DNA of 64,000 bases from Rhynchobatus australiae. Lineage: Eukaryota. Of this stretch, positions 3,016-61,680 are shown in pieces (position 1 is the stretch's first letter; the number at the start of each line of letters is the position of its first letter). The notes below the pieces were generated by a model, which was not told the DNA's origin, searched no databases, and saw only the letters and a list, made by a program, of their open reading frames with translations. The position numbers were made by a program, and so were the translations under genes. The stretch covers positions 15,489,471 through 15,553,470 of the forward strand of contig JAUZTB010000065.1 of assembly GCA_034780895.1 (NCBI GenBank), in the 5' to 3' direction.

Positions 3016-4689
3016 TTGACATGCAGCATGTAAACTCAGGATCAAACTAAATGGCATTAGTTAAATGGTCAGTGCATAGTGGGCTGATGAATACTTGTTT
3101 AAGAGACTATTAGCACATAATTCAATAGTGCATGAGGCCCAAGGTGTTGGGTGCTGCTGAAGTGATGTTACACAGGGAAAGCCCTTTCCTTTAAACACTT
3201 TACTGTTGCTGAAAATCAAAAGGAAATCAGGTAAACCCAGGTCAAAGTGAACGAGGGAGAGATCCTCTTGGTGTTGAGGCTTGATAGAAGGGGTTGATAT
3301 CTAAGGATCCATAATGGGCTGGACAGTCTGAGGAGATTGAGGATCAGCAGTGCGATCATAGGGTGAGTCTGAGGGTGTTGATTCTGGAAAGTTAGAGTGG
3401 GATAGGGATTGGGAAAGGGAATGGTAGTCAAAGGGAGATTTGCTTTGGAGAAAGGTAGGGGAATTGATAAATGCATTGGTAATGGGTCATCTGGTTAGTG
3501 GATTCGTTGATGGGGCTTGGTTGGCGGATCATTGAGGGTTAGAATGGGACTGGTATGGGGGTCCCTAAGGGAGCACCCTTGGTGGGTTCCCAGCTCTTGA
3601 CTCTCTGGTAATGGACAGGTAAGGCATGTCTCACTAGTGTTGTGAAGATGCATTGTTGGGCACACTGTCCATGGCATTGAAAACATGGAAGCATCCAAGC
3701 AGGCCCAACACACTCCTGGTTGATACTGCCCCCATCCAGGCTTCTCTGTTAGTGTGTCAGACACATGGAGGATCCAAAAGGTAAAGTTGCTGACTTGGTG
3801 CAGTAAATCCCAAATTCTCATGACAAAGCATGGCATAATGTGGTTCAGTTTCTAAGCACTGCTGTTTGTGCTGAGCACTTGCAATGATCCCCATCTGCCT
3901 CCGCAGAACAGATCAGCTGGTTGTTTCCTGTGGAATCTTTCACCCATCACATAACGTCAGCCAGTGGAAAATAAAGCTCCACAGCATAGAATAATTGAAC
4001 ACACAGATGGTGAAGTTTCTCTGACAGCCTCAGCTCCATCAGTTGCACACGTGCTGTCAAAACCACTGCTGTGTGTTTGAGCCTACTCCGTGACTCCCAT
4101 CTCATGGGGTGGATGCCATGGAGTAGCACTGAGGACAGGTGTTTGAGTCTGGGATTTGGGGTGCGCGGGGGGAGGTCACTATATGTTGGAATCAAGCATG
4201 GTGAAAAACCAAAGCCCTACTTGCCATTAAAAGACCCCTAGGCTTTTTTTTGGAAAAGATTTCCCACCTATCCTTCACCTAACCCCATACAGAGATTAGT
4301 TGATACCCTCTGCCACTTGTGGGATCTTGTTGTGCGCAAAACAATCTCTCCTGCATTATCCTATATTTCAACTACTACACTTCATGGTAATTGATTGCAT
4401 ATGAAGTGCTTTGGGGTGCCCCTAAGAAACTTGGTTATGTCCTATATAAATACAAGGCTTTCTTTTAGTTCCAGGCCGATGTAAACATGTGGATTCAAAA
4501 GTGACAGGGTAGCACCAAGCAGCACTTTAAAGAGGCCTTTAATTAATAAACTAAAACACTTTCTCTCAGACGTTCTATCCTTCCCTCGGATTTTTTTCCT
4601 CTCCAGATTCCTGCCACCATTCCCCAGACACCTCATTTATCATGGTAAGTTGAACTCGTGCTTACAACTGGATGGCAACAGATACCCAT

Positions 4690-5100
4690 CTTGTGAGGGA
4701 GGAGGGGGCGGGACGGGTGAAGGGGGAGAGGAGAGGCAGACAAGCCACATTCCTCGGGAGGCCACTGCCGCTGGCTCTGTAGTCTCAGCAGCTGTTGTGT
4801 TCTTTGCTAACAGCCTCACTCCCTCTGTCCCCCTTCCCTATTTTTTTCAAAAACATTCAAAGCTGACTACAATTTATAGAGGTCGGCAGGAGCTAAGCAA
4901 AGATTGTTGAAGGGGGAGGGAGAGGAAGAATGCTTTTTTTTCCGACACCTAGTCTGTAAAGAAAATATTGAATAGCGTTCGGGGATTTGCAAGCGACCCC
5001 GGGCAGTATGCTAAGAATCTCTGCAAGACACAATTCACTTCAAAGCTCACACAGCCATTCTAGGAATCAGCTCAGTCGGTCTGTGTTATAAAGCTGAATA
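4690..5100. promoter_or_regulatory. Promoter/enhancer-like non-repeat block
   Basis: GC box ggagggggcgggac near 4700-4715, purine-rich tracts, retained CpGs and an ACTACAAT motif near 4866. Confidence 0.4.
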
Positions 5101-5339
5101 TCTTTTCATGTAAAAGTTTATTTTATTGTTTTTTGATCATTTTGTTAAGATTTCCTTGCACCACATTTTTTTAAAATCTCTTTTGAACTTTGGAAGTTCT
5201 GCTACCCCAGGGAATAATTAGACAATTCTATTATCTTTCCAGCATTTTCACATGCCAAGGATGGAAGCCCCTCCACTGAGGCTGTTGCTTACACTTTGCT
5301 CAGTGCTGTATTAAGCCAGTCAGGGCAGTAAAACCAAGT

Positions 5340-5710
5340 TTAAGCTGAAGTTCAGTGGGGAGTCAGAGCTAGAATATTATGGGCTCAATCTCTACTCCAA
5401 TCCACAGTACAGTACAGAGGGAGCACAATACTGTTGAAATTGCAGTTTGAAAGGCAGCATCTTTCCACTAAGTTTTAAACAGTGTTGAGTGTTAAAGATT
5501 TCATGGCACTATCTGGAGGAAGAGTCCTGACCAATATTTATCCCACAGCCAACATCACTAAAAAACAGATGATCCAGCCATGCACACATTTGTTACATGT
5601 GGGACTATGCTGTGTGCAAATTGGCTGAACTTCAAAACTAATTCATTATCCGTGAAGTTCTTTAAGACTCCCCGATGACATAAAAAGTGCATTAACCATG
5701 CAAGTTCTTC
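5340..5710 (+). mobile_element. Deu-domain SINE, decayed
   Basis: atggcactat...gaagagtcctgaccaatatttatcccacagccaacatcactaaaaaacagat...gtgtgcaaattggctg...tgcaagttcttc. Confidence 0.65.
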
Positions 5711-5773
5711 CTGGCTTCTCTGAGTTGGCTAGTCTCAGCTCAGGGTCTTACTATTGGCTGCTGGGCTGGGGAA

Positions 5774-6058
5774 TAGAGATTTGTGAAAGGCCAGCATTTA
5801 AAGCTGACCTGACCTACCCAAACCTGACACACATGATCAGATCCTGTTGGGCTTGGGTCATGTAGGCAAGCTCTAAATAGCTGTAGTACATTTATTGATG
5901 AAGAGCCAGCCCTGCCTGATTTGACCTGACCCCAAGGACTTATCATTTTTTTTTGATACCCGACCAGACCTAAATCTGACACATACAGTTGGATCTTAAT
6001 GGGCTACATTCAGTTAGCCAGCCCCAACTGGGTCTCCTGCACGTGTGCAGACTTTAAG
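5774..6058. mobile_element. Non-autonomous DNA transposon-like element (hAT-like) with ACCTG/ACCCG subterminal repeats
   Basis: Repeated tgacctgacc/cccgaccagacc units and ends tagag.../gcagacttta. Related sequence at about 17590-17920. Confidence 0.4.
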
Positions 6059-6084
6059 AGAATATAATCTGGAAAATGAAAATT

Positions 6085-6296
6085 GCTGATCTTGGAAATC
6101 TGAAATAAAAACAGAAAATGCTGGAACTACTCAACAGAACAGGTTGCATGTGTGGAGAGGGAAATTGGGNNNNNNNNNNNNNNNNNNNNNNNNNNNNNNN
6201 NNNNNNNNNNNNNNNNNNNNNNNNNNNNNNNNNNNNNNNNNNNNNNNNNNNNNNNNNNNNNNNNNNNNNAAAGTTTCAGGTCATTTTCTGTTTTTA
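6085..6296. mobile_element. Palindromic Penelope-derived short element spanning an N gap
   Basis: gaaatctgaaataaaaacagaaaatgctggaactactcaacagaacagg...[N]...cattttctgttttta: inverted arms on both sides of the gap. Confidence 0.55.
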
Positions 6297-6639
6297 TATA
6301 ACACCGTCCTGGAGTTGACTGTGAAGCCTAACGCAGCCCACCAACCTTCAGAGGCTAAGTCAGGCCTCAAATGAATACATTATAACATCACACAGAGATA
6401 TTTCAAGCACATGTGCAAAAATATTTCTTCAAGTACTTGGGAGGTATTCAGATGTCTTCTGTCCATCCCCACTGTAGTTAATATTTACATCAAGACACTG
6501 GGGGTGTCTCGTATCTGTGGAAGCTATAATCTGAGGTGACAGTGTGCTTCAGTGAGCCAACACCCCACAATCAAACACTGACTCTCCATTGCCAACACCT
6601 CCTCCCTCCAACCTCCTTAATGTTACCCTTCTCCAGCCT

Positions 6640-7170
6640 GGCCTCAGCTCATCCGCTGATGCCAAAAGTCTCATCCGTGCCTTTCTCATGTTGAGTCTCA
6701 ATATTCCATAGCACTCTTGACCAGCCACACATCTTCCAATCTCTATCCACTAGCTCATCCAAACCATACTGTATTCTGTCTCACTCAGTTGCCAAGCAAT
6801 GACCTGCATTGGATCGTGGTTTCCCCAGTGCCTCAAATTCTCCTTCTTGTGCTGAACCCCCTCCATTGCCCCCTTTCTTTCTACCTCTTAAATCCCACCA
6901 TTGCTGTAATATCTTTTCTTTGCTTTGTATTTTCTAACTCTGCCCCCCAAATCCACCCCCCTTTACTCTACCATTGGAGTCAGTGCCTTATGATGCCCAG
7001 ACCATATAGAGTGGACTTCCTTTTTTGAGGTGCTCCACCTAGACCTTCCATAAATCTATTGCTTTAGGTGAAGGTTCAGGGCACCCTTATCTCCTCTTTG
7101 AGATCAGTGTTCATTTTTATCCCCCCTTGTGTTTCAGTACAGCATTGTGGGACCCTTGTCACTGTGAATG
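6640..7170 (+). mobile_element. Decayed L2-type LINE 3' fragment
   Basis: ctcatccgtgcctttctc..., gacctgcattggatcgtggtt...caaattctccttcttgtg. Confidence 0.5.
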
Positions 7171-8119
7171 TAAGATGCTGCTCACTCCTACAACAAGTAG
7201 TGCACACCATCACTGAGGCATTGCAATGTTGTGGGGGTGCAGGGGGTGGGGTGCCTCACAAAACACAGTCGCCCTGACAACTGAGAATGGCTTTGATTAA
7301 ACTGTAATGGCAGGACAACAACGGCTGCTCCACAGGCAGCAGCGAGCAAAAAAACAACAAGAATCAGATCTGACAGGAGCCTCTTCAAAGGACCAGCCAC
7401 TCACACTGCTTTTGTTCAAAGTTTCAATCAGTTCTCAAATATCTCTGGGTGCTGTCCTCAATTGCAGCATAAAGCCAGATATCTAGGCACACAAGACATC
7501 TTAACAAGCCAGTTAATATAAACTGTGTCTGACAGAGGCTCTTTAATAATGTACACGTACACACAGACTGTTTATCTGACCTGACTGTAGATCCAAGTAC
7601 ACTCGCTGTCTCCTCACTACTTGGGATATTTGATGTCTTACATGATTTTGAATCATCCATCAAAGAGCTACATGTCATACCTCTCAAAGGAATCAAATGA
7701 TTTGTTATTTGCTTATTTTTTTATAAAAAAAACCTACACATTCCTTTAATGGCTCAATTTTAAAAAAGAACAGCCTACATGGAAAAATAACCTAGACACC
7801 CCAGGATGGCCACTGGTTAGCAGTAAGGCAACTTGATAGGTAATGGCTCTTGCTTAACAGATAGTCCTCTGGATCCAGTTCCCTTCAACATCCTGCTGAA
7901 TGGGTGACCCTGGAGATACAAGTCAAGATGAGGAATTTGGCTGGCAATCAGGAACAGGAATCAAGGCTGCATTTTCCCCCTCTTAAGCCTGGGGACAGAT
8001 TGACTATAAAGTAAACCTTGCCTGTGCAGCAGTACGATACACTCAGGTATGATCCCAGATTGTTGTTAGGGCTACTGACACACAAATGAAAGCTGTTGAA
8101 CTATAGAAGATGTATAGAA

Positions 8120-8390
8120 TGGGAGAAAATATATGACATTGAAGGAGACTATTCAGCTTGTTAAGTCTCTACCAGTTGAAAAAGAGCTATAAACTTCACC
8201 TCACTTTCCAAAATCATAGCTCTGCTAAGTAATGGGTCTTCAAATACATAACCAAGTACTGTTTAAATGTGATGAAGGTTTCTACCTCCATCAGTTTTCC
8301 AGGCAATGAGCTTCAGACCCCTAAGGTTCTCTGGGCAAAAAATATTTTCCTCACCTTCCCCCTAATTCTTTGACCAACTATTTTAAAATA
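8120..8390 (-). mobile_element. CR1-type LINE 3' fragment
   Basis: ggcaatgagcttcagacccctaagg..ctctggg..aaaa..ttttcctcacctt, the reverse of the FFTQRVV..WNSLP region. Confidence 0.55.
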
Positions 8391-8769
8391 TCACAAACAA
8401 AGAAAAAGGCTTGCTTCCTTTCCAATTTTTTTCTATTATTATATGTGAGAGAGAAAATAAGATCTGTTGCCATTGGTGACTTCCAAGAAAATTGCCAGAT
8501 TTTGATGATTTTCCAACTTAGCTATGCTGCTTTTATGTGATTTTAAGATGTCACTCTCATTAACACAATCATCTCATAACACAGTTAAGTCTGTATAATC
8601 TAACTAAATACAAAGAACCAATAAATGGATTAGTAAAGAACTTTNNNNNNNNNNNNNNNNNTATTAGGCCTGACAAGTCAGTTCCTGTTTGATAAATAAG
8701 CAACCTTCTGCCCATTTGCTTTAATCTCACCAACCTATTTCCACGTTAAATTCCCGAATCCTGTGCAAC

Positions 8770-9160
8770 CATCCAAGAAAGAAAGACATACATTTATAAA
8801 GCACCTCTAAAGCTTCAGGACATCTCCATAGTTTACAGCTAATTAAATACTTCTGTTGTACTCTTGCAATGTAGTAAATGCTGAACAAAGAGTAATAAAT
8901 AGCAACCAAATCAACTGTTTTTAATGATACCATGAACAACATCTTCAAAATAGGCTCATGTGAACTTATTCATCTACTTGAGAAGGCAAGCTGGCTCTTG
9001 ATTTAATCTCTCACCAAAAGGGAGCACCTCCAATAATACAGCACTCTGACAGAACTGTAAAGCAGCCTCAGCCTAAATTTTTGTGCTCAAGTTTCGAGTG
9101 CATGACTCAAATCTTCTAACTCAAGAGGCAATAATCCCACTAACTGAACCATGGCTGAAA
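8770..9160 (-). mobile_element. Deu-domain SINE, decayed
   Basis: aaagacatacatttataaagcacct...tttgtgctcaagt..actcaagaggc...ccactaactgaaccatggctga (tRNA-like head in reverse). Confidence 0.6.
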
Positions 9161-9424
9161 ATTCACCCTCAATCCCACCTGCCCACCTGGAAATGTCCCC
9201 ACCCTAAACTTTCTGTTTTGCTTCCAGCTTGGTCACTTGTAGCTTCTGCAGCTGATATTTGAAACTTTCAGCACAGGGAATATTGCAAGTACAAGGTGAA
9301 AGGGAATCCTGAAGATGCATGGAATACAGGATCCTGTTTGAATAAGACTTGATGTGACCAGAAACAACTGGAGGAATTGGGGACATAATCCTTCGCACCC
9401 CTGGCCTGACTATTATCTGTGACT

Positions 9425-9650
9425 AAAAACAAAATACTCAAAACCCTCAGAAGGTCAGGCTACATCTGTGGAAGGAGAAACAGTGAACATTATTGGTTCA
9501 GTACCTCTTGTTAGAACTCTGAAATAAATCTGAAAAAGGGTGTTGGACCTGAAATGTTAGTCGTTCCTCTTTCTACAGATGCTGCCTGCCCTGCTGAGTA
9601 TTTGCACCATTTCTGTATTTATTTCAGATTTCTAGCATCTGCAGTTTTTT
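9425..9650. mobile_element. Palindromic Penelope-derived short element with hammerhead-like core
   Basis: Inverted arms ctcagaaggtcaggctacatctgtggaagg / cctctttctacagatgctgcctgccctgctgag. Core CTGAAAA-A-GGGTG-TTG-GACCT-GAAA at 9530-9554. Confidence 0.65.
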
Positions 9651-10594
9651 TTAAATTTTCTAATATTTGTGCCGATTCCCCTCTGTGCTATTCTGTACTA
9701 TAAAAGGCTTCACATAAAATAAAGAAGATTCCAAATTTCTGCAGAACCGTTAATATTCTTAGGACATCCTAATTTGTTTTACTGTGAAGTGCAGTAACTG
9801 TAAAATGCTCCTTCTTTGCTTGATTGGCAAACCCAGGGGCAATTTATACACAGCAAGCTCCTACCAACTGCAAGTGAGATACACGACCAGTTAATGTGTT
9901 TGGTGACGTTGACTGAAGGTGCAGTCTGGTGTCGGCATCAAGAGAACTAGCCCCCACATCTTTTCATAGTGCCTCTTTTGCACCAGTTTCCTATGACATT
10001 GAACCCTCTAAAACTTGTGCTGGCCTCTTATTTTTGACATTAGCACCCTGTAATGCACCTCCAACATTCTCTATCTTCATTCCATAACAATCAATCTTTT
10101 TCTGAACACTCCCTTTAGAATGAACCCATTCGTGAGGGAGCTTTTCAATAAGTGACTGAACTAAAATCTATCAGCCAAATTATGACATTAACCTAAGCAA
10201 AGTGAAGGTGAAATTTGAAGGGGAAAATTAAAAGGAGAACAGATCTAATTGTCCACCCAATAACAAGTAACAGATTTGCAGCACATGTTAGCCTGTCTAG
10301 ACCACACAGCCTGGCACCCAGTGAGAATCTCACTTCAGTTGGTTACTGGCTTTGAGCCCAACAGTTTCATAAAGAAACAGAGCTTATATTCTGGATGTCT
10401 GTGATATAAAAAGAAGGCTGACACGTGGGCTGAAGTGAAAGGCCATGTACTCGACCGGGGTTACTGTGTTAATGCAAATGGTATTTTGGCACTCACGGAA
10501 GTATTGGGAGTGAATTGGACTCTGGACAAAGATGCAAATGGCACTGAAAATACTAAAAGACATCACCTGCATTGACAGACTGCCCTTTTCGGCC

Positions 10595-10830: not shown

Positions 10831-11317
10831 CACAAGGCCTTTCTGAAAGACCTCAAGAATGAGAGATAGAATGACACAAAATTAAGATGGACTAGGATTT
10901 ATCTTTAAGAATAAACAGCTCATTTTTGCTGAAGTATTTCTCTCTGAGTGGAATGGTTGATGCTATGGTTTAGAAAGACAATTGCCATTTTACCTCAAAA
11001 CCTTGTTTCACTTCCAATTTGGTGGCATGAATGAAAGTGCAATGAACTTGACGGCTGTTCAGATTCAGGAATAAAGTACACATGCTATTCAGCTTCTGCT
11101 GGATGTGAATCTATAGAGCATAAATTGGATTTAAAGATATTAACATGGGGGAAGAGTAGGAATCAAATGTATTATGCCACACAAGCCCTCTGTGTGTGTG
11201 TAATTGCAGGTAAGTAAAATCAGGAATTTGATCCTGGAACCAAAAGGTGCGAGTTCAAACCCCACTCTTGACCTGAAGCATGCAACCTAGGCTGGTGTCA
11301 TTGATAATAATAGAGAA

Positions 11318-11508
11318 TCATGGAAATACTCAGCAGATCTCCAGCACCTGTGCAGAGAAAAAACATTTCATCTTTCAGATCACTGATCTTTTGTCAGAAC
11401 AGTTAATTCTCTTCCTCTCTCCACAGATGCTGCCTGGCCTGCTGAGAAATTCCAGCATTTGCTGTTTTTATTTCAGATTTACAGCATCTGCAATTTTTGC
11501 TTTTTGAT
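11318..11508. mobile_element. Palindromic Penelope-derived element nested in a Deu-SINE (about 11230-11735)
   Basis: Arms ggaaatactcagcag...gtgcagagaaa / ctctccacagatgctgcctggcctgctgagaaattcc. Minus-strand core at 11373-11397. SINE head (B-box gagttcaaacc) lies upstream and the Deu body downstream. Confidence 0.7.
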
Positions 11509-11754: not shown

Positions 11755-12580
11755 GAATCATAGAGTTATACGGCACAGAAATGGGCCCTTCGGCCTATCA
11801 CGTCCATGCTGGCCGTTTTGACCAGCTACCCTAATCCCATTTGCCAGCACTAGGTCCATATCCTTCTTTGCCTTTCCTATCTAATTGCCGGCCTAAATGT
11901 CTCTTAAATATAGTGATTGTATCAGACTCCACCCCTTCTCTGGCAGTGAGTTTTAGATACCAGTCACTCTCAGTTTAACAACTTTCTCACCAAATCCTCT
12001 TTAAAACTCCTTCTTCTCATCTTAAACCTATGCCCTCTTTTTTGGATACCCCTACTATGGGATAAAAATTCTGACTATCTGCCTTACCTATGCCTCTTAT
12101 AATTTTATACCTCTCCATCAGGTCACCCTTCAGCCTTCTTCACTCCAGGTAAAACAAGCTCGGCCTATCCAATCTCTCCCAATTCCTAAAGTTCTTCAAT
12201 CCATTCAATTTCTCAAGCAGTTTGTTTTTTTGCCCCAACTTTTACATTCAATGCCGTAATCTATGAAGGCAAGCAGTCCAAATGCCTTCTTCACCTCACC
12301 GTCTACCTATGTTGACACTTTCAGGGAAATATGGACTTAAGTCCGAAGGTCCCTCTGTTCATCAACATTGCTTAGCCCCTACCATTTGCTGCATATATCC
12401 TCTCCCTATTTGACTTCTCAAAATGCATCGCCTCACATTTGTCAGGATTAAATTCCATCTGCCAATGCTCTGCTTATCTTTCCAGATGATCTGTATCCTG
12501 CTGTGGCCTTAGACAGCCTTTCTCACTAACCACAACAGTGCCAACTTTTGTGTCATCCGCAAACTTACTAATCATACCCC
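11755..12580 (-). mobile_element. CR1/HER1-type LINE 3' half (RT C-terminus and tail)
   Basis: ttgtgtcatccgcaaactt is the reverse of KFADDTK. gaatcatagagttatacggcacagaaatgggcccttcggcc is the typical tail. Confidence 0.8.
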
Positions 12581-14894
12581 TGCAAGATGAATGGCATTGG
12601 TAGAACACAGATAAAATCTAATCACTCTCCAAAGAAAGTTACCAAATAACATGCTTGGACCTATTGTGATCTGGGCTCATATTCTCAAGACTTGTGCCAT
12701 GCAGATAAAGCACAATGATTTCTCCTTGTAAACCTTTGGTTAAGTTAGGAGAAAGGCAGCCAAGAAAAGAGTGGGATGTTGGCAATCAAGTTGCTGTGTT
12801 TCCATTAGGTTGACTCAAAGGGCATTGGATACTGGGTTAGAAATGTCTCTTAGTAATGCTGAGGGCGTACTTTAAATAATAATTTATAGTGTGAAACATG
12901 TTGGTCTAGGAAATCAGATTCATCGTGCTGTTACTTTGGACTGGAACATAATTGCCATCAATGTTCAGTTAATTTGCACCACTCTGAATATTCAACCCAA
13001 TGCTACTGGTTGGAATCACCCTTGTATATCTGACATAATTTCTATACCAGGTGGACATGGAATAATATCACCCGTTTCCAGAGCATTGCCCAGGCAAAAT
13101 AATACTTCTTGTTCTTCAACCTTCTTGCCCATTTTTAGCCATAAGCACAGGCCTATAAACTCTTGTGCACCCAAAACAGGAATTGGATTGGCCAGTGGCC
13201 ACGGGTGCCTATTCTGTGGCCAGCAGAACAGGGTTCTCAGGGTTCTGTGATTAATGATTGGGGTGGGGGAACCTGGTGAAGGATGACTGGGAAGCAGGAG
13301 AAAGACACATTGGGGTCTGGCGATGGAGGGTTGGGTGGCGATGGGGAAGGAAGTTGATTGTGAGTCATTTCGTGTCCAAGTGATGAATTGTTGGGAACTG
13401 TGGAGGGAGACACTTCAGAGCCCACTGGCAGATGGATTGACTTGGGCAGGGCAGAGAGACTTTGGAGGCTAGTGATGGATGGCCAATGGGGAGACCCAAT
13501 GGGGCCCAATTGTGAATGGTCAGAGAGGAATGTCAGATCAGGGCCCAGAAATGGACAGATAATCATATGGCCACACTTCTGGGACCACAGAATGGGAGAG
13601 AGATCGTGAAGGGGTGGTATGGTGCAGGTATGTACAGAAGGGTGATTCAGTGCTCTACTGAAGAGGTAGCGTGTTGGAGATTGGGAGAATGGGGGCCACA
13701 GTTTGCAAAGTAATTGGGGGACTGGAAATTGTGATTAATACTTTTAACTCTGGAAAAAAATCAGTTTCCAACATGGGGAAAAAAACATGCAAACAAGCTT
13801 GGTAGTTCCAGGCTCAAACAACATTCAGGTGAATCCTGTGATTTTTCTCCTTACTTTTTGGGGGTCAATCCTTCTACCTCTCTGCTTCATCCCCAACTGC
13901 AATGTTACCCCAGCCCCTGAATCCTCAGTCAAGCCCCCAATTTTCCACAGACGAAGGTTGCTGATTTTGACCAGCTACCACCCACATACCTCTCAGAAGG
14001 TCCAAACCACTGGCCGTCTCTTGCTCCCAGAACCCCAGCCCCAGTCCAGTCCAATGCCAGATGTCATATTTGCCTTGTGCATTCCTCAGCATGTGAAGGA
14101 AAGTGTGGTAAGTGGGTGTTGCTGGTAGGGTCTATATTTATTGCTCATTGTTAATTGTCCTTGAGAAGGTGGTTATGAGCTGTCTGTTATTATAGTCCAT
14201 GTGGAGAAAGTAATCCCAAAGTACTGAGAGGATAAAGAGTTTCAAGGCTTTGACACAGTGACTCTGAAGTAATGACAATGTATTTCCTTTGCAACGTTTC
14301 AGTTGCATAACAAGCTACAGAAAAACAAAGATAAACTACCCTAGTGGACATAACATATAAGACAGTTCCCTTTTATATTCAACAATGGAAATTCACACTG
14401 TTAAGTAAAATGGTCTGAAATGTTCAGTTTAATTCAGAAGTGAATGTTCATTTTAATTCAGATGTCGAGTTGGCTTTGAGTGCCAGGTGACTGCAGGAAC
14501 AGCCTTACATTGGTAGATAATCTGGGATAAACCAAAAGCTGGGATCCACTTTCAGCCAACAAGAATGAGGCAGAACTACCCACTGAATTTTTGCTAAATG
14601 CTTATTTACTGAATCAGGCACTTGCATTGCCTGAACTAATTACAGTTGTGGAAGATCATTTGACCCATCTTAATTCAGCAATATATTGAAAAAGGTTCCA
14701 AGCCCTGGTTCATTCTTACATCCAATTATTGTTAAGTAACTCCTGAGTTGCTTTCTTTTCATTATCTAGCTTTGTATTCCACACATTAGTCATAATTAGT
14801 CCAAAAAATTACATCCCAATATCTTCTTTTACTAGTTTGAAGCTCTATTCTTTGAATTGACTCCTTGTTTCAATTTAAAGTAATGTTATTGTTA

Positions 14895-15095
14895 GAAACA
14901 GAAAATGCCAGAAACACTGCTGATCAAACAGCATCTGTGGAGGGAGAGACAGAATAAATATTTCAGGTCAATGACTATTTTTCAGAACCAGTTCTAATGA
15001 AAGGTAATTGAGCTGAAATATTGCAGTCCGACCTGCTGAGTGCTTCTGACATCCTCTATTTTTGTTTCAGATTTCCTGCATCTGCAGTGTTTTAC
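14895..15095. mobile_element. Palindromic Penelope-derived element with two divergent hammerhead-like cores
   Basis: tttcaggtcaatgactatttttcag-aaccagtt-ctaatgaaaggtaattgagctgaaa (14961-15018), flanked by inverted arms. Confidence 0.7.
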
Positions 15096-20303: not shown

Positions 20304-20440
20304 GTGGAGGCACAAGTAACTGCAGAGGCTGGAACCCGGAGCAACAAATAATCTGCTGGAGGAACTCAGTGGGTCAAGTAGCATCTGTGGGAGGAAAGGA
20401 ATTGTTTTGGGTCAAAAATCCTGCATCAGGACGCTTTATT
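20304..20440 (+). mobile_element. Penelope-derived short element (second subfamily) inserted in a Deu-SINE
   Basis: cacaagtaactgcagaggctggaacccggagcaacaaataatctgctggaggaactcag...ctgcatcaggac, flanked by AGTTCTAGCTA at 20293-20303 and 20441-20451. Confidence 0.65.
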
Positions 20441-22042: not shown

Positions 22043-22240
22043 TTTTGGAGCAACAAACAATCTGCAGCAGGAACTCAGTGAGTCGTGCAGCATCTGTGGG
22101 AGGGAAGAAACTGTTGATTTTTTGGGTCAAAGTCCTGCATCAAGACTTTCCTCCTTTAGATGGTGTTCGACTGGTTGATTTCCTCCAGCATATTGTTAGT
22201 TCCTCCAAGTTCCAGTATCTGCAGTCTCTTGTGTCTCCAA
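22043..22240. mobile_element. Palindromic Penelope-derived element (second subfamily)
   Basis: Inverted arms ggagcaacaaacaatctgcagcaggaactcag / ttcctccagcatattgttagttcctccaagttccagtatctgcagtctcttgtgtctc. Confidence 0.65.
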
Positions 22241-23319: not shown

Positions 23320-23972
23320 AGAATGGGATGTTAGCTTTCATATGTCGTGGGATCGAGTTTAAGAGCCACGAAGTAATAATGCAGCTTTACAAAGCTCTGA
23401 TTAGATCACACTTGGAGTACTGTGTCCAGTTCTGGTCGCCTCATTATAGGAAGGATGCGGAGCCGTTGGAAAGGGTGCAGAGGAGATTTACCAGGATGCT
23501 GCCTGGATTAGAGAGTATGGATTATGAGGAGAGACTAAAGNNNNNNNNNNNNNNNNNNNNNNNNNNNNNNNNNNNNNNNNNNNNNNNNNNNNNNNNNNNN
23601 NNNNNNNNNNNNNNNNNNNNNNNNNNNNNNNNNNNNNNNNAGGAATAGATAGAGTGGACAGCCAGCGCCTCTTTCCCAGGGCACCAATGCTCAATACAAG
23701 AGGGCATGGCTTTAAAGGTAATGGGTGGGAAGTTCAAGGGAAATGTCAGAGGGATGTTTTTCACCCAGAGAGTGGTTGGTGCATGGAATGCACTGCCTGG
23801 GGTGGTGGTGGTGGCAGATAGATTGGTCAAGTTCAAGAAATTGTTAGATAAGCATATGGAGGAATTTAAGATAGAGGGATAAGTGGGAGGAAGGGGTTAG
23901 ATATCTTAAATGTGGTTTGAAGGTCAGCACAACATGGTGGGCAGAAGGGCCTGTATTGTTCTATGGTTCTAT
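23320..23972 (+). mobile_element. Young 5'-truncated CR1/HER1 LINE (with N gap)
   Basis: ORF GMLAFICRGIEFKSHEVIMQLYKALIRSHLEYCVQFWSPHYRKD...VQRRFTRMLPGL is the CR1 ORF2 C-terminus. Tail ttctatggttctat. Confidence 0.92.
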
Positions 23973-24567
23973 TACGAATCAAGGGGAAAAGAGAATTGGT
24001 GATTATGGGACAGAAGTCTGCTCAAGGCCTGAGGACTGAGTAAGGGCAAGGGGGAAAGGCTAATCAGTGTTAGTAGTATCGTGGATCATGGTTGTGGGGG
24101 CAGGAGATAGAAGATGGCATAGGGCCTGATCATATTGGATAATCAATAGATGGGGATGTCAGCTGAGGGTTGTCATCCAGTTGGGGGTTGGTGAATACAG
24201 TACAGAAGGAGAACACATAAGAATTAGAACAAAGGAGACCCACTTGAGTTCGGTTGCCAGTGCAGGACTGGGACCTGCTCAGAGAGGCCTCCTTTAAATT
24301 GTTCTAGGATAATGACAACCTATAGTTGTTCAGGGGATGCCCAATGACAAGTGTACTTCAGAACAACGTGACCTAATTTCAATGCTGTTGCTGTAAAGGA
24401 ACCTTAGACTGGGGGTGATGTCATGTTATCTGGGGCTAACGTGAAAATCTCATCATTGGCACAAACAAGATTTGTGACTGCAAGTGATTGGCTAAATTTG
24501 CCACCTGGTGCAAAACTACCCAGAAGCTATTACAGTTCTTTCCAGCCTGGAAGTAACTGGATTTCAT

Positions 24568-25108
24568 TTGCATAATTGTGTTCAGTTCTGGTCGCCTCAT
24601 TATAGAAAGGATGTGGAAGCTTTAGAGGGGGTGCAGAGAAGATTTACCAGAATGTTGCCTGGATTGGAGAGCATGTCTTATGAGGATAGGTTGAGTGAGC
24701 TAGGCCTTTTCTCTTTGGAGAGGAGGAGGATGAGAGGTGACTTGATAGAGATGTACAAGATGATAAGAGGCATTGATCAAGTGGACAGTCAGAGACTTTT
24801 TCCCAGGGCGACAATGGCTAACACAAGGGGACATAATTTTAAGGTGATTGGNNNNNNNNNNNNNNNNNNNNNNNNNNNNNNNNNNNNNNNNNNNNNNNNN
24901 NNNNNNNNNNNNNNNNNNNNNNNNNNNNNNNNNNNNNNNNNNNNNNNNNNNNNNNNNNNNNNNNNNNNNNNNNNNNNNNNNNNNNNNNNATGTGGGGGGG
25001 GGGTGGGGAGAAAGATTAGAAAGATCTTAGAGCAGAATAAAATGTAAGCACAACATTGTGGGCCGAAGGGCCTGTACTGTGCTGTGGTTTTCTATGTTCT
25101 ATGCTCTA
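24568..25108 (+). mobile_element. Young 5'-truncated CR1/HER1 LINE (with N gap)
   Basis: CVQFWSPHYRKDVEALEGVQRRFTRMLPGLESMSYEDRLSELGLFSLERRRMRGDLIE...TRGH. Tail gggccgaagggcctgtactgtgctgt..ttctatgttctatg. Confidence 0.93.
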
Positions 25109-32900: not shown

Positions 32901-33644
32901 CTGATATATTTGTTACTTAGCAGTAGTGACTATACTTCAAAAGTAATCATTGGCTTTAAAGCTGTTTGAAATGACCTAAGGGTTGATAAGTACTGTATAA
33001 ATGTGAATTATATGCATCTATGTATTGTACAAGAACTCCAAATTGGATCCAAATTTTCAGCACAGCTTTGTGGACTGAAGGACCTCAATTGTGCTGTAGT
33101 TTTTCTATGTTTCTATGGATCCCTTAAACCTAAAATACAGTATTAGGGCACAACTTAAAGCCAAACTACTGACAATTCCGTGAATGAAATAATCTTTGGA
33201 ACTATATATTCACTTTCACAACAAAACTGCCAGCACTTTTCAATCTGTACACCTGACTTCCCAGCTCACTGCTATGATGTAAAACAGCTTCACCTAGGAA
33301 CTGTGAATAGAAGTGGCTGACTTAGAGTGAAGAATCAAACACACAACCGTTAAATCATGGCTGATGAACATTTGACGTAGTAGGGACCTGTGGGAGTAAG
33401 GTTGCTAACTCTGGCTAGACGAATTCCTGGAGGTTTCCTAACCTGACCTTCTACCCCTACTGCCCCGACGTCACAGTTCTTGCCATTAGTCACCCAACAT
33501 GAAATCATACATACAGTGACCAGGTCACTTGGCCATTGTGCCTGTCCTGGCTTTTTGAAAGAGCAAATCATTTAATCTCACTTCCCTGCTCTTTTTTCCT
33601 AGTCCTGTAAACCTTCTTTCTCCCTTCCAATGTTTGTCCATTTC

Positions 33645-33784
33645 AGAGACTTTTTCCCAGGGTGACAATGGCTAACATGAGGGGACATAATTTTAAGGTG
33701 ATTGGAGGAAGATACAACAGGGATGTCAGGGGTAAGTTTTTTTTTACACAGAGAGTGGAGGGGGCGTGGAACACACTGCCGGCA
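33645..33784 (+). mobile_element. Young CR1/HER1 LINE fragment running into a large N gap
   Basis: MANMRGHNFKVIGGRYNRDVRGKFFFTQRVEGAWNTLP. Confidence 0.88.
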
Positions 33785-36700
33785 NNNNNNNNNNNNNNNN
33801 NNNNNNNNNNNNNNNNNNNNNNNNNNNNNNNNNNNNNNNNNNNNNNNNNNNNNNNNNNNNNNNNNNNNNNNNNNNNNNNNNNNNNNNNNNNNNNNNNNNN
33901 NNNNNNNNNNNNNNNNNNNNNNNNNNNNNNNNNNNNNNNNNNNNNNNNNNNNNNNNNNNNNNNNNNNNNNNNNNNNNNNNNNNNNNNNNNNNNNNNNNNN
34001 NNNNNNNNNNNNNNNNNNNNNNNNNNNNNNNNNNNNNNNNNNNNNNNNNNNNNNNNNNNNNNNNNNNNNNNNNNNNNNNNNNNNNNNNNNNNNNNNNNNN
34101 NNNNNNNNNNNNNNNNNNNNNNNNNNNNNNNNNNNNNNNNNNNNNNNNNNNNNNNNNNNNNNNNNNNNNNNNNNNNNNNNNNNNNNNNNNNNNNNNNNNN
34201 NNNNNNNNNNNNNNNNNNNNNNNNNNNNNNNNNNNNNNNNNNNNNNNNNNNNNNNNNNNNNNNNNNNNNNNNNNNNNNNNNNNNNNNNNNNNNNNNNNNN
34301 NNNNNNNNNNNNNNNNNNNNNNNNNNNNNNNNNNNNNNNNNNNNNNNNNNNNNNNNNNNNNNNNNNNNNNNNNNNNNNNNNNNNNNNNNNNNNNNNNNNN
34401 NNNNNNNNNNNNNNNNNNNNNNNNNNNNNNNNNNNNNNNNNNNNNNNNNNNNNNNNNNNNNNNNNNNNNNNNNNNNNNNNNNNNNNNNNNNNNNNNNNNN
34501 NNNNNNNNNNNNNNNNNNNNNNNNNNNNNNNNNNNNNNNNNNNNNNNNNNNNNNNNNNNNNNNNNNNNNNNNNNNNNNNNNNNNNNNNNNNNNNNNNNNN
34601 NNNNNNNNNNNNNNTTAAAACCCATACAAATACAGCAGAAACAAAAACAGAAAATGCTGGAAGCACCCAGCAGGTCAGGCACCGTCAGTGGGAAGAGTTA
34701 GTCAGAACAGGGACCCCTTCGTCACCTCTGAGCACTTCCAGTATTTTGCTTTGGATTTCTAACAAAGCAGTGATCTGCTCCAAGTACAGGTAGAGTTTCT
34801 GCAACAGTGCTCAGGAAGTGATTACAACTTCTGGTTTATTTGGCAAATCAGGTCAATCTTCTACCTAAAACAAAGAAAAAAGAAAATGCTGGATAAATTC
34901 TACAGGCCCAGCAGCACCTTTGGAAAGGGAAGCTGAGATAACTTTTCAGAGTATTTGTCCAGAAATTTAATTGAATAACTATGGATCTTTTTCACCATCA
35001 TTCAATGGAAAAATGATTTATTTTCTTTCCCCAGAGTGAAATGCATTACTGACCATTTTTAGGTTGTTTCATGTCACTTTGGAAATTTGACCAGGTGTGA
35101 GTCACCCTTGGCCCTTGTTGGGATTTAATTTTGATGTACTGCAGGGTAACCTGGGCTTTGTTGTTTTGTGAGTGCCTGTCATTGGTACTGCCAGGATAAC
35201 TTGGTCTGCCCAGTGCAGTGCTAGATTGGGATACCTGCCAGGTAAGTCAATTATTTTCATCAGTCAGCCTCCACAAACTCCTTTGCTGCACTGCACACCC
35301 CCCACCCACAATACTCACCAATTCCATTCTGCCCCCTTCCTCTTTGACCCTGTGGTTGCTTGAGGCCAGACCTCGATTCCCCGATGTGTTGCCTCAGCCT
35401 CCTGTCCATCCATCTCTGCAGGCCCCATTCCCTAATTCCTGATCTGTCCCACCCCCAGACCCAGATATCCCCTTGACCATTCATGTTGCTGGCATCAAAT
35501 TCTACAACCATTCTATCCCCAGTCATCAATCCTACCCTCAGCAATGTCAGAGAGCACACAAATTCAAACCCCAAAATGGGCAAAGCCCAATTAGTTGTGC
35601 TTGAAGGTCTTGGACTTTGGGCATAACTGTGGTCTGCAGCATGGTGCTAAAGATGACGTTATACCTATCCAATGGATCATTTCAGGTTCACAGAGTATTT
35701 TTTGCCAGTGTGTCTTAGAATGAAATGGCAGTGAATTAGGGATGAGATGAGGACAAATTACATCACCAAGCAGGCTGCTAATCTTTAGAATGTTGTCCTC
35801 TAGTGCATTATGGATGCTCAGTCTTTAAATATATTCAAGAGAGAGATCAATTGGTGTTTGCAGACCAAAGGACTCAAGGGAAATGGGGGTGGGAAAAGTG
35901 GAGTTGAGTTAAATGCTCAGCTATTTCCTTAATAAATATTAGAGCAATTTCAAAAGGCCATTTGATCTTATCTAGCTCCTGTTCCTTATATTTTAATATT
36001 CTTGGAAAGGGCTCAAGAGAACAAGTGCAAGCAAGCACTGAGAGACAGAGAGATACACCCACAGTCAGAACTACAACAATCCCATCATAAAGGCTGCCTT
36101 TCACTGACACCAGGTGCAGTGGCACTGGATTGAGACAATATCTTCTCTGTTGCTATATCCAGCACCCTAGTTGGTTCTCCTAGTGTCAGAGGAGAAACCA
36201 CACCCTTCAACATACACCTGAGCTGCACTTAAAATTTCAATATAACATCTCTGACTATCAGCCTTCTACCAGCAATACGAAGCATGATTTCCAATTGTTC
36301 AGCCTCAGTGAAAGACAATGTGAAATGTGGGGGCAGCAACTTATATATCCAACATATGGCTGTGACATCGACAAGATAGAACAGCCTGAGCTACAGAAAG
36401 AGGCCGACTGGGACACAAGCAAAAAAAAGGTTGAACTTTCAGTCTCACATTTAGAAAACACTTCAAAATTCTGAATTAAAAAGAAGAATCTTTAGGATCG
36501 AATAATTCATTAATATATTCTGGGACAATTCTTTCAAAGTAGGCTTGGTTCTGTTCCAAATGCACTAAAGGGTTTTCTGCATATTTTCAAATCCATTATC
36601 TTCAGCCGATTTCATTATGCTATCATGCACACATCACTTTCAGTGTTGAAGTCTGACAGAAAACAAAAGACAGCAATTGTACCCACTGGATCCTGTACAT

Positions 36701-47208: not shown

Positions 47209-47327
47209 CACTCTATACTAACCCAATGTAACTGCACTATGTAATGAATTGACCTGTATGATCAATATGCAAGACAAGTTTTTCACTGTACCTTGGTACG
47301 AGTGACAATAATAAACCAATACCAATA
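47209..47327 (+). mobile_element. Young LINE 3' end with (ACCAAT) tail, nested in an older SINE
   Basis: gtaatgaattgacctgtatgatcaatatgcaagacaagtttttcactgtaccttggtacgagtgacaataataaaccaataccaat. An inverted copy lies at 51254-51552. Confidence 0.7.
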
Positions 47328-48449: not shown

Positions 48450-48534
48450 TCCTCAATCCTGAGGGAAGAAGAGTCATTGGAAACAATATTGACAACATTG
48501 TTTTCAATGACTCTTCTTCCCTCAGGATTGAGGA
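48450..48534. repeat. Near-perfect inverted repeat (42-bp arms, centre 48492)
   Basis: Base-by-base pairing shows 40 of 42 Watson-Crick pairs. Confidence 0.95.
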
Positions 48535-51253
48535 TGATTTCCTTACATCCATGGATTCTGAGAGTAGCTGATGAGGTCAATGTGGGCACGGCAGATGGGT
48601 TGGTAGTTTGAAAGGTGGTGCACTCCTTCTGCAACTTACACAGAGCTTATGTTTATTTCTGATGGATGTACTCAAGGTTGTCAATAGCATCTGAAATGCT
48701 CCTTCTCCACTTTATACTGTTATGGGCCAGAGATTCTCAATGATCAGTGAAAATGTTGCACTTCCTCAAGGAAGCTTTCAGCACACTTGTACACCTACTA
48801 AGATATGAAACTTTAGTTCCACACCATTGCTATATTTCAGACCACTTTACAACCCTACTCTAAACTTCACCAGAAAAGCTAAATTCCAGAGATTGAATGC
48901 CCTGTGCATCAGTGCAACTTTTTTTAAGCATAGCATCAGAGCAAGAGGTGCATGGGAAAACCATCATCTTCATCCCTTCCATTTCTCTACCTTATAAATA
49001 GATTGCTTTCTCTTCACTATTGTTGGTTCAATATTAAACTCCTTACTTATAAGTGTGTCTGGTGGATCTTCACCACAGAGACCACAGAAGTCATAATCTT
49101 TACAAAGGCAATAAGACTGACAATAAAAGTGTCCTTGGCAGCAATGCCCACAAAGTAAGTGAATAATAAGTATTTTTTCAGATTAAACCTCTGATGTTGT
49201 TTAGGATACAGGCTCCCAAACCCTCACTCTCTTTGAGGTTACATTTCATAGGCTTGGACATGAGATATGGATCTATGGACACTGTCTGCTACTGGAACCT
49301 CTCACAAGGGTATGGATTGCTCCCACATCCACTCTTTCTGGGATGTATGTTCCAGATAAACTGCAGGATGTTGAAATTACTTAACAATAAAATCAGATAA
49401 TTGTATCAATGGCATGGCATTTCATTCAGTTGACTGCAGGATAAAGCTGTAAACCAGTGTGTCTCACTTCTGCTTGAGAGAGGGTTAAAGCACACTTGGT
49501 GATGAATGATTTCAGTTTTCACTCAAATCTTACCAAGGCCTTGGCACAAAATTTACTACAATAATAGAAGGTGACCTTTCAGTAATATTTGAAATAATCG
49601 GTAGGTAAAGCTGGCATTTAAAAAGCAATCAGAAAGTTTTATAACCTAGGATATCCCACAGGGTCTTAAATAGACCAAGACCTTGTTGTGCCTCAGTAAA
49701 TGTCTCTGTATTTCAGGTGGATATATGTTTACCAAAGACAGTCATGGATTTTTAACTTTGATAGGTGTTAAAGACAAGTATGAATTCTCTTTCTGGTGAT
49801 CTAGTTGTACTCAATGGATACTGAGAGGACTCTGGGAGAACATTATCCATCCTGAATCATCTCATTAGCCTCTCAGCTTTCCCACTTACCCCACGTTTAA
49901 TCTTGAAGTTCACAGGAATGTTGATGGGAGCACTTGCTCTAGGCATGTACGTGTGTTTATACGTGTGCATGCATGTGCCAACTCTTTTTTGACAACACCT
50001 TTCATATAGACAAAGTCTACCAACACAGCACAAGGGCAGCAGGCACATGGCAAGATCACTGTCTGCAGCTTCTCCTCCAAGAAACAACAGTTTCACAAAT
50101 ATATCCCATTAACTTCATGTCATTTAGTGTCAATACTAAACTTTCTTACCCAGCAGCACAGTAGGGGAATCTTCCTAAAAGACAGCTCGCCACCATCTTC
50201 TCAAGGGAACTTAAGGATAGGCAAGAAATTCTGGTCACATCCCAAAAATGAACTTAAGTCAAAGTGTGTGGATGTGCATGTGCACATTTCCAAATGTGTG
50301 TGAAATCTTACGTGTGTGAAATTTTATGTGTGCATACAGATTTGATGACAAAAAAGGCATTTCTGATGCCTCATATAGTCCAATTTCTCACCCATGTTCC
50401 CTGTGAACAATGGCTATTTGGGTTTGACTACACTTACCAGTCGCTCTCTGCTGTGCTACAATTTAAAGCTAGAAGGAAAGGAAATTGGCAAGATAAAATG
50501 TAAAAGTTCCCACAACTCTGCAGCCAAGATAACGTAAACTGTAACCTAATTATCGGAAAATCTCACTCGGAAAAGCTGGAAGCCAGAGGGAGCTGCCAAA
50601 CCATGCTATAAAGTTAAACAGTAAACACATTCAGAGACCAAAGCAAAATAGCAATCCCACTAAACAGGTACAACTCAATGGCAAATAAGATGGTTGGCAA
50701 CAAGACAGGAAATAAAAACCAGGCCTTGATATTTACAGGGAATCAACAAGGGAGGGAGAGATTTAGGCAGCATGGAGTGTTGTGGAAAAAGGGAGGGAGC
50801 AGGCAAGGGACCAAGCATGTCAGCAGCTCAGAAATTGGAAAGACTGGAGCAGTGGAAGTATCAGCAAATTTAATGGAATAATATCTTTTAAAGCTAGTTA
50901 TCCATCAGATTGAAAGGATGGGCTGAGTGTTTTGCAGGAAACCCTGCCCACAAAGGCAGCAAGTGGTGTCTAGTTGAATGTCAAGATGACCTGGTGGAGG
51001 AGGGAGGGAGGAGAAAAGGAAGTGGAGAATCCATGGAGAAAATGCACTTGTGAGGGTGGTGGGTACTCCTGGAAGAGACTGGGAGGCAGAAGCAATGGAC
51101 ACAACAATAGGAGGGTCTCGTTGCATGGACAGAGACAAAAGTAAGGAAGTGATCATGGGAAAGAAGGAATGACAGAGGAGATCCTTGCCTGGCTGCTGTT
51201 ATGGATGTTGTCACAGTGCAGGCACACTGACAACGCAAAACTTTTGCGAAAAT

Positions 51254-51552
51254 TGGCATTGGATTATTATTGTCACTTGTACCGAGGAACAGTGAAAAAC
51301 TTGTCTTGCATACCGATCGTACAGGTCAATTCATTACACAGTGCAGTTACAATGAGTTAGTACAGAGTGCATTAAGGTAGTACAGGTAAAAACAATAACA
51401 GTACAGAGTAAAGTGTCACAGCTACAGAGAAAGTGCAATACAGGTAGACAATAAGGTGCAAGGTCACAACAAGGTAGATTGTGAAGTCAAGAGTCCATCT
51501 CATCGTATAAGGGAACCGTTCAATAGTGTTATCAAAGTGGGATAGAAGCTGG
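51254..51552 (-). mobile_element. Young LINE 3' fragment (same family as 47209-47327)
   Basis: ttattattgtcacttgtaccgaggaacagtgaaaaacttgtcttgcataccgatcgtacaggtcaattcattacacagtgcagttaca..., with CpGs retained. Confidence 0.75.
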
Positions 51553-55395: not shown

Positions 55396-55733
55396 AATAA
55401 AACAACATAAAATGCTGAAGATACTCAGCAGGTCAGGCAACATCTGTGGAGAAAGAAAGTTAACATTTCAGGTTGATAACCTTACATCAGAATTGAAAAA
55501 CTCAGAAAAGAAGCATATTTTAAGTTGCAGAGCAGGAGGATTAGAGTGAGGAAAGGGAATGTCTGTGGTAACGTACAGATCAAGACTGTCCAGGTGATAC
55601 AATAGCTATTGGTGCCATCTAAGAGAGGGTGATATATGCTTGTTAATCATAACTAATTGTCTGGATTGAGTATCTCTGACTTAATCTATTTTTATTTCAG
55701 ATTTCCCACATCTGCAATATTTTCCTTTTTGTT
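55396..55733. mobile_element. Penelope-derived element with best-preserved hammerhead-like core
   Basis: aaaatgctgaagatactcagcaggtcaggcaacatctgtggag. Minus-strand core at 55466-55490. Closing arm tttttatttcagatttcccacatctgca. Confidence 0.7.
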
Positions 55734-61595: not shown

Positions 61596-61680
61596 CAGAT
61601 GCTGTTCGACCCGCTGAGTTCCTCCAGCAGATTGTTTGTTGCTCCAGATTCCAGCATCTACAGCCTCTTGTGTCTCCTGG
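61596..61680 (-). mobile_element. Penelope-derived element arm beside an N gap (young copy)
   Basis: cagatgctgttcgacccgctgagttcctccagcagattgtttgttgctccagattccagcatctacagcctcttgtgtctc, with CpGs retained. Confidence 0.7.

Follow-up and report, generated by a model that had tools for sequence, protein, structure and literature searches.

The question raised by this locus is whether the hammerhead-like motifs scattered through it are working ribozymes, a separate family of palindromic insertions or the remains of a larger retroelement. The window (the whole 64,000 nt stretch of Rhynchobatus australiae DNA analysed here) had been described in a preliminary description as carrying five hammerhead cores with an identical 7+1+5+3+5+4 spacing, none of them intact. 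All five were found letter for letter, on the strands claimed, at 55458..55490 (minus), 11373-11397 (minus), 14961-14985 (minus), 14994-15018 (plus) and 9530-9554 (plus), and each is indeed damaged. The core at 55458..55490, a member of what is called family A below, carries A9U and a CpG-decayed ACGU palindrome, and its stem II is fully paired (5/5) via two transitions. G8A was found in the cores at 11373-11397 (which has also lost H17), 14961-14985 and 9530-9554, and G5A in the core at 14994-15018, which is followed by a deletion. Stem II is Watson-Crick paired at all five positions in two of the five cores (55490 minus and 11397 minus), has three of five pairs in each of 14985 minus and 14994 plus, and consists of three pairs, one wobble and one mismatch in 9530 plus. 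Positions G5, G8 and A9 of the hammerhead are held to be essential for catalysis. Mutation of G8 inactivates a hammerhead from a Penelope-like element (PLE), according to the available text of PMC11167929. Judged from their sequences, the five cores are likely dead as ribozymes. An Rfam scan of the window returned no hammerhead family at E<=5, and BLAST of the window showed the cores embedded in a longer repeat, often arranged as inverted pairs.

The abundance of this repeat was determined using a profile seeded on copies with intact cores. In an unbiased sample made up of the window, eight neighbouring stretches and 92 blind 10-kb stretches (101 stretches not picked for the repeat, 869,102 non-N bases), the profile found 217 matches, and 0 in reversed sequence. 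As the repeat is present far beyond chance, the common spacing of the five window cores is a product of common descent and does not amount to five independent observations. Clustering of 231 near-complete copies, out of 438 matches, on only the columns downstream of the ribozyme produced families A (149 copies), B (34) and C (48); four clusters were picked by inspection and two were merged as A, while an information criterion favoured fewer. The matches in the 92 blind stretches comprised 113 from family A, 58 from C and 19 from B. Family A has a density of approximately 150 matches per Mb, which corresponds, to an order of magnitude and provided that the large contigs are representative, to 2-3 x 10^5 matches in the 2.23-Gb genome.

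The majority sequence of each of the three families contains an intact minimal hammerhead with the CUGANGA ... GAAA ... UH core, and median divergence from the majority is 17% in A, 14% in C and 5% in B. An unpaired nucleotide between A9 and 10.1, a palindromic 15.2-16.2 and a short helix I make up the family layout, and these majority sequences bear out the earlier proposal of a minimal type I hammerhead in which A9 is followed by an extra nucleotide and helix III survives as a palindromic ACGU. The ancestral unit proposed from the window copies lies near one subfamily and exists intact elsewhere (8 exact matches genome-wide, 0 for a control pattern), but its stem II is not the commoner form, which in family A begins with G (G.U at 10.1-11.1); the A-U form defines a subfamily, A2. 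A looser intact pattern had 253 genomic matches against 0 for the control, and an intact 35-place pattern was found in 36 genomic copies and 0 in the control.

The window contains 13 profile matches, ten from family A and three from sister family C. The core at 55458..55490 is part of a 5'-truncated PLE pLTR (55396..55574, minus) consisting of about 85 nt of pyrimidine-rich 3' UTR, the hammerhead and the 3' part, which finishes at a short (tail-less) end; an opposed, tail-bearing partner arm fragment without a core was found at 55664..55730 (plus). The other four cores lie in head-to-head pairs. In the pair at 14892..15093, a short minus arm (core 14961-14985) faces a long plus arm (core 14994-15018), and both arms begin at the front edge of the hammerhead. 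The pair at 11294..11497 has a minus arm with the core at 11373-11397 and a long plus arm truncated inside the core. The pair at 9421..9651 has a long plus arm with the core at 9530-9554 and a short minus arm; a 10-of-12 direct repeat at 9410 and 9660, which alone is not significant, may be a decayed target-site duplication (TSD). A family A copy without a core (6079..6165, minus) has the long (tail) end, a degenerate head-to-head family A pair (34634..34772) has a weak plus arm (E=0.066), and a family A fragment at 34872..34949 (minus) has the short end. The family C matches are a copy with a decayed core (20312..20432, minus) and an exact 11-bp direct repeat on either side (20293, 20441), a second copy (22052..22142, minus), and a fragment without a core (61596..61668, plus). 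In a subgroup of family C, C replaces A9 (12 of 47 copies, including those at 20312-20432 and 22052-22142 in the window and others at loci L135, L238 and L278), and this variant, common to several copies, was possibly present in a source element.

Longer copies elsewhere in the genome contain, in order, a reverse transcriptase (RT), thumb, cysteine linker, GIY-YIG endonuclease, a 3' UTR of about 300 nt, the hammerhead and then about 70 or 95 nt. At three loci (L229, L230 and L160), remnants of RT, thumb, linker and GIY-YIG precede a family A hammerhead in this order. In 11 of 149 family A copies, five of them from blind stretches, the same strand carries the C-terminus of the GIY-YIG domain 200-380 nt upstream, and the pyrimidine-rich UTR is upstream in 43 of 149. 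The Penelope origin suggested earlier is confirmed by the colinear arrangement of RT, GIY-YIG, UTR and hammerhead at the three loci, and the join of copies to a Penelope RT/GIY-YIG ORF was found both there and at the 11 endonuclease ends. What is left of the ORF in the genome is broken, gives weak matches (E 1e-4 to 1e-18) and by itself scores only sub-threshold for GIY-YIG. Full-length relatives of the linked ORF match Pfam RVT_1 and GIY-YIG; those relatives of the linked protein that have names come from a skate and a bamboo shark, and a cluster look-up returned no name for seven full-length proteins. The linker in the family A locus L229 reads C-x4-C-x2-C and loci of the sister families also fit CX2-5CxxC, a linker given for Neptune and Nematis between RT and endonuclease in the available text of PMC8557442. 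By this motif the endonuclease-bearing element would be a Neptune-like PLE.

Families B and C sit behind longer frames at six or more loci, and an endonuclease query gave 38,620 first-look candidates in the genome. A full-length family A element with two direct pLTRs and an open frame was not found among 30 N-terminal loci and 10 extensions, in an assembly with many stretches of N, and no PLE coding remnant was found in the window. In L245 and L271 a family A motif is upstream of the frame, but it was treated as a neighbour, with unrelated DNA in between. Internal deletions that join the RT or endonuclease closely to a family A hammerhead were seen in L237 (4973-6340) and L044 (1346-1600). We conclude, with a probability of roughly 0.88, that the repeats are 5'-truncated, decayed pLTR copies of an abundant PLE encoding RT and GIY-YIG, with the hammerhead likely selected only in active source elements and the window copies likely dead.

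Covariation in stem II had been put forward for the window copies. When 118 family A copies not selected by core were examined by permutation, stem II pairs 10.2-10.5 showed 9 double changes against 8.25 expected (p=0.45), and the same approach gave no significant overall excess of stem II double changes in families B and C. Pair 2.1-1.1 in family C reached p=0.015, and both its sides are CpG sites. The claim therefore fell away; the two versions of stem II are ordinary transitions, one of them at a CpG, and a G-to-A transition of CpG type is common at 11.5 (30 of 118 family A copies). An alignment-level covariation score (2/500 shuffles) was set aside because it pooled families and used rows chosen for intact cores, and so was not independent. 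Compensatory change is seen only between sister families, as one or two events: family A has U-A at 2.1-1.1 where B and C have C-G, and at 10.1-11.1 the G-C of B and C corresponds to G.U or A-U in A. This fits selection on source elements.

The earlier view that the units are subject to CpG decay was confirmed, not only by the changes at 11.5. G12 is the general base of the hammerhead. In families B and C it lies in a CpG, and its loss (16 of 34 copies in B, 18 of 45 in C) is as frequent as that of non-catalytic CpG sites. A rival reading is that selection on host transcripts maintains the genomic copies as functional ribozymes. In its favour, the family A core is somewhat less diverged than the tail (10.7% versus 15.4%, p=1e-5, with a profile itself seeded on intact cores; 10.8% versus 15.5%, p=0.005, in the blind subset). 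In a core-blind set of 28 family A copies found by UTR and tail the difference was not significant (9.6% versus 13.1%, p=0.14) and no single base class differed between core and tail; weak constraint on the family A core is conceivable. The 36 intact copies genome-wide would also agree with function, but among copies of order 10^5 they are a small residue. All core letters are retained in only 18 of the 100 copies that reach C3, and two of these also keep the palindrome; in the core-blind set the count is 3 of 28 against 1.2 expected. There is no covariation at the level of copies, and each core in the window has a mutation at G5, G8 or A9. In addition, folding predicts that hairpins sequester the paired motifs (z -3.1 and -6.2). 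Selection for function in host transcripts is thus a very improbable explanation for the copies. In folding of short pieces, 0 of 7 were better than shuffles, and in nearest-neighbour folding, a model that ignores the tertiary core, the hammerhead monomer and dimer targets were above the predicted minima, in intact copies too.

The arrangement of neighbouring copies was then considered. Among 161 clusters, neighbours are head-to-head in 32 cases, tail-to-tail in 5 and direct in 19. The palindromes had been thought to permit cleavage as dimers. The two motifs of a head-to-head pair are on opposite strands, so a transcript through it includes a single sense motif, which is predicted to lie within a long hairpin, and a pair cannot supply the dimer needed by minimal hammerheads. 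The activity of PLE minimal hammerheads as dimers is in any event described as low in the available text of PMC4209133. In L064 (1500-1720), a family A hammerhead unit occurs as a short tandem duplication in direct orientation, with a period of about 90 nt, the only geometry observed that could permit a dimer.

The 3' ends of family copies are bimodal, falling into two groups about 25-30 nt apart, and the two kinds of end occur together in pairs more often than expected. Classification was possible for 51 of the 64 head-to-head pairs, and 38 of the 51 joined a long and a short arm, against 25.5 expected (p=3e-4); among pairs from blind stretches the count was 21 of 26. The arms of a pair are slightly more alike than random copies (0.741 versus 0.718, p=0.002). 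Direct repeats scoring at least 9 were found beside 9 of 58 testable pairs, compared to 0.3% of 344 mismatched controls. They are 9-14 bp long, one of the nine overlaps an arm end, and some pairs have TSDs of 11-14 bp. The 5' starts were examined in 99 family A copies from the unbiased stretches, keeping in mind that local alignment blurs ends by a few bases. Starts were found within the 5 nt before C3 in 22 copies, in the 15 nt from -25 to -11 in one, and in the 15 nt around the cut site in nine. The pile-up is thus at the front edge of the hammerhead (22/99) and not at the cut site (9/99), and the cut site was rejected as the 5' boundary of copies. A spliced RNA template was also discarded, as 32 front-edge copies compared by eye had no common upstream exon, though two may hide a decayed UTR.

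These ends can be compared with an in vitro PLE system, in which RT starts at two sites that are the source of the optional tail, and both DNA strands are cut and extended (available text of PMC11167929). Drawing on that system, the PLE protein would bind its own RNA and nick both strands of the target, and reverse transcription would begin on uncleaved RNA, downstream of the hammerhead, at either of two sites. Most cDNAs would halt early, often at the front edge of the hammerhead, where the RNA probably has its 5' end. If both nicks prime, one per start site, two short cDNAs could be joined head to head to create a palindrome of unequal arms, one long and one short, flanked by TSDs. We favour this origin of the palindromes, from two cDNAs primed at both nicks, one from each start site, though by a modest margin over doubt. 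The inserted copies would then decay, and no excess of compensatory change was observed among them. In the source element, the hammerhead likely serves to process tandem transcripts, as a dimer or with the aid of protein, a role that has been proposed for other PLEs.

The inverted arm might instead arise when a single cDNA or antisense template folds back or primes itself, as put forward in the available text of PMC3846280. Both arms belong to one family in 58 of 62 pairs, they share the loop subfamily in 16 of 19 pairs against 9.6 expected, and several pair centres are near-palindromic, all of which such a process would produce. However, fold-back alone leaves the fixed internal end of the second arm, about 25-30 nt short of the first, unexplained, and the cutting and extension of both strands from two start sites in vitro also speaks against it, making it unlikely. 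Priming from both nicks remains the preferred account. More tentatively, and with the odds somewhat against it, the stubs may be a fossil record of coordinated two-strand priming by a dimeric RT-endonuclease, with run-off before the hammerhead on an uncleaved template in the manner of a retroviral strong-stop product, perhaps together with a free-standing, ribozyme-bearing 130-nt SINE-like subfamily that is still young in other cartilaginous fishes.

The preliminary description regarded the insertions as a non-autonomous family of their own. Both the UTR and the GIY-YIG end are found joined to this sequence, and the palindromes have variable centres, with spacings of -89 to +104 and centre sequences that differ; most copies are therefore truncated insertion products of the autonomous element. 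A MITE-like hairpin family with fixed centre and length was rejected on the same variation in spacing. A short non-autonomous element derived from the pLTR (SINE- or MITE-like, about 130 nt as a single copy or 230 nt as a hairpin) and mobilised in trans by the PLE protein is nevertheless conceivable for at least A2. It would account for the absence of the UTR from 106 of 149 family A copies, the 13 of 64 pairs with a centre spacing of 7-11 nt, and the presence of 24 of 56 A2 copies in pairs when only 7 have the UTR. The sharp 5' edge in front of the hammerhead also suits such an element, but is equally expected from cDNA run-off at the 5' end of the autonomous RNA. In a sequencing run from another organism, compared with L287 (1498-1600), many contigs are 95-99% or more alike, start at the hammerhead edge and have no UTR cover, and these contigs, taken by themselves, are possibly a young short form of family A. 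Weighing against a short source are the variable pair centres and the fact that A2 is joined to the UTR (window 55574-55396) and to an RT remnant (L237). A non-autonomous source therefore appears doubtful, and truncation of the autonomous element is retained as the origin of most copies.

The family is a cartilaginous-fish addition to a ribozyme class described in 2014. In the available parts of that report (Cervera and De la Pena 2014, PMC4209133), the minimal type I hammerheads of metazoan PLE pLTRs have the same CUGANGA followed by one unpaired nucleotide and helix II, the same GAAA, palindromic 15.2-16.2 and NUH, and a short helix I. They too occur mostly as single dispersed motifs, with some pairs on opposite strands and several families per genome. 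The Crassostrea PLE row in Fig. S3 has nearly the layout of family B, and the G.U and A-U of family A at 10.1-11.1 occur in the Xenopus and Latimeria rows. The families found here differ in a helix II of 5 bp with a loop of 2-3 nt, in the absence from family A of the G10.1-C11.1 pair usual in the class, and in a copy number of order 10^5 remnants against 4,000-9,000 motifs, which were counted differently. The available part of the supplement has no chondrichthyan row, and the words 'shark', 'Callorhinchus', 'Leucoraja' and 'skate' are missing from its searchable portion.

The insertion units of endonuclease-bearing PLEs, as given in the available text of PMC3846280 and PMC8557442, share with this family the 5' truncation, head-to-head inverted copy, tail on one end, TSDs of about 8-14 bp, C-terminal GIY-YIG and CX2-5CxxC linker. 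Unlike those units, the commonest one here consists of two arms of 60-130 nt with no ORF between them, and the tail is about 25-30 nt rather than 30-40 bp. PAc (Poseidon of Anolis; Frangieh et al. 2024, PMC11167929) also has two 3' ends downstream of the hammerhead and copy ends without a pile-up at the cut site. It belongs to a different clade and its mechanism was studied in vitro. For PAc, the available text describes neither the pairing of long and short arms within one insertion nor a stop at the front edge of the hammerhead. Non-LTR retrozymes (bioRxiv 10.64898/2026.07.22.740005; see also PMC7229834) are, in the available text of the preprint, likewise non-coding, with a type I hammerhead and a PLE pLTR origin. 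They form direct tandem arrays, while copies here are scattered one by one or paired in inverted orientation (of the 161 clusters, 19 have direct neighbours), and for the window copies, all singles or inverted pairs, a retrozyme identity was rejected. According to the available part of the preprint, tandem retrozymes and PLEs occur across vertebrates, one chondrichthyan among them, and its supplements may list this family. A literature search, with Repbase, Dfam and most subscription journals outside its reach, found no paper on the family.

The copies examined here give no sign of ribozyme function. The value of the family is mechanistic, as PLE integration is poorly understood. Short insertions of order 10^5 with measurable ends offer in-genome predictions for the existing in vitro PLE system, and the ends on record are two 3' ends paired long with short, a 5' edge before the ribozyme, none at the cut site, and duplications of 11-14 bp. 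Hammerhead scans of shark and ray genomes would return many dead PLE ends.

A developmental gene had been suggested as host of the insertions. A Pfam scan of the 300 longest of 538 stop-free frames of at least 45 aa in the window gave 0 matches and did not bear this out, in a test that is insensitive, as it missed a LINE-like frame at 24496-24852. That frame, which has no Pfam match, reads like what we take to be the end of a CR1-type LINE reverse transcriptase. Other features of the window are a near-perfect 85-bp hairpin at 48450-48534, which is 94% self-complementary, unrelated to the family and matched only sub-threshold by miRNA models, a 118-bp inverted pair (47209-47326 and 51252-51369) that is 90% alike and 4 kb apart, and repeated fragments at 23421-25089, 12058-12147 and 33643-33705.

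In D. virilis, an intron of Penelope ends at helix I (available text of PMC4209133). A splice-acceptor-like pyrimidine tract followed by CAG was seen directly before helix I in all three families (window 55491-55510; L028, L046, L051 and L060), and two further sites with a pyrimidine tract and CAG were found in the 3' part of family copies.
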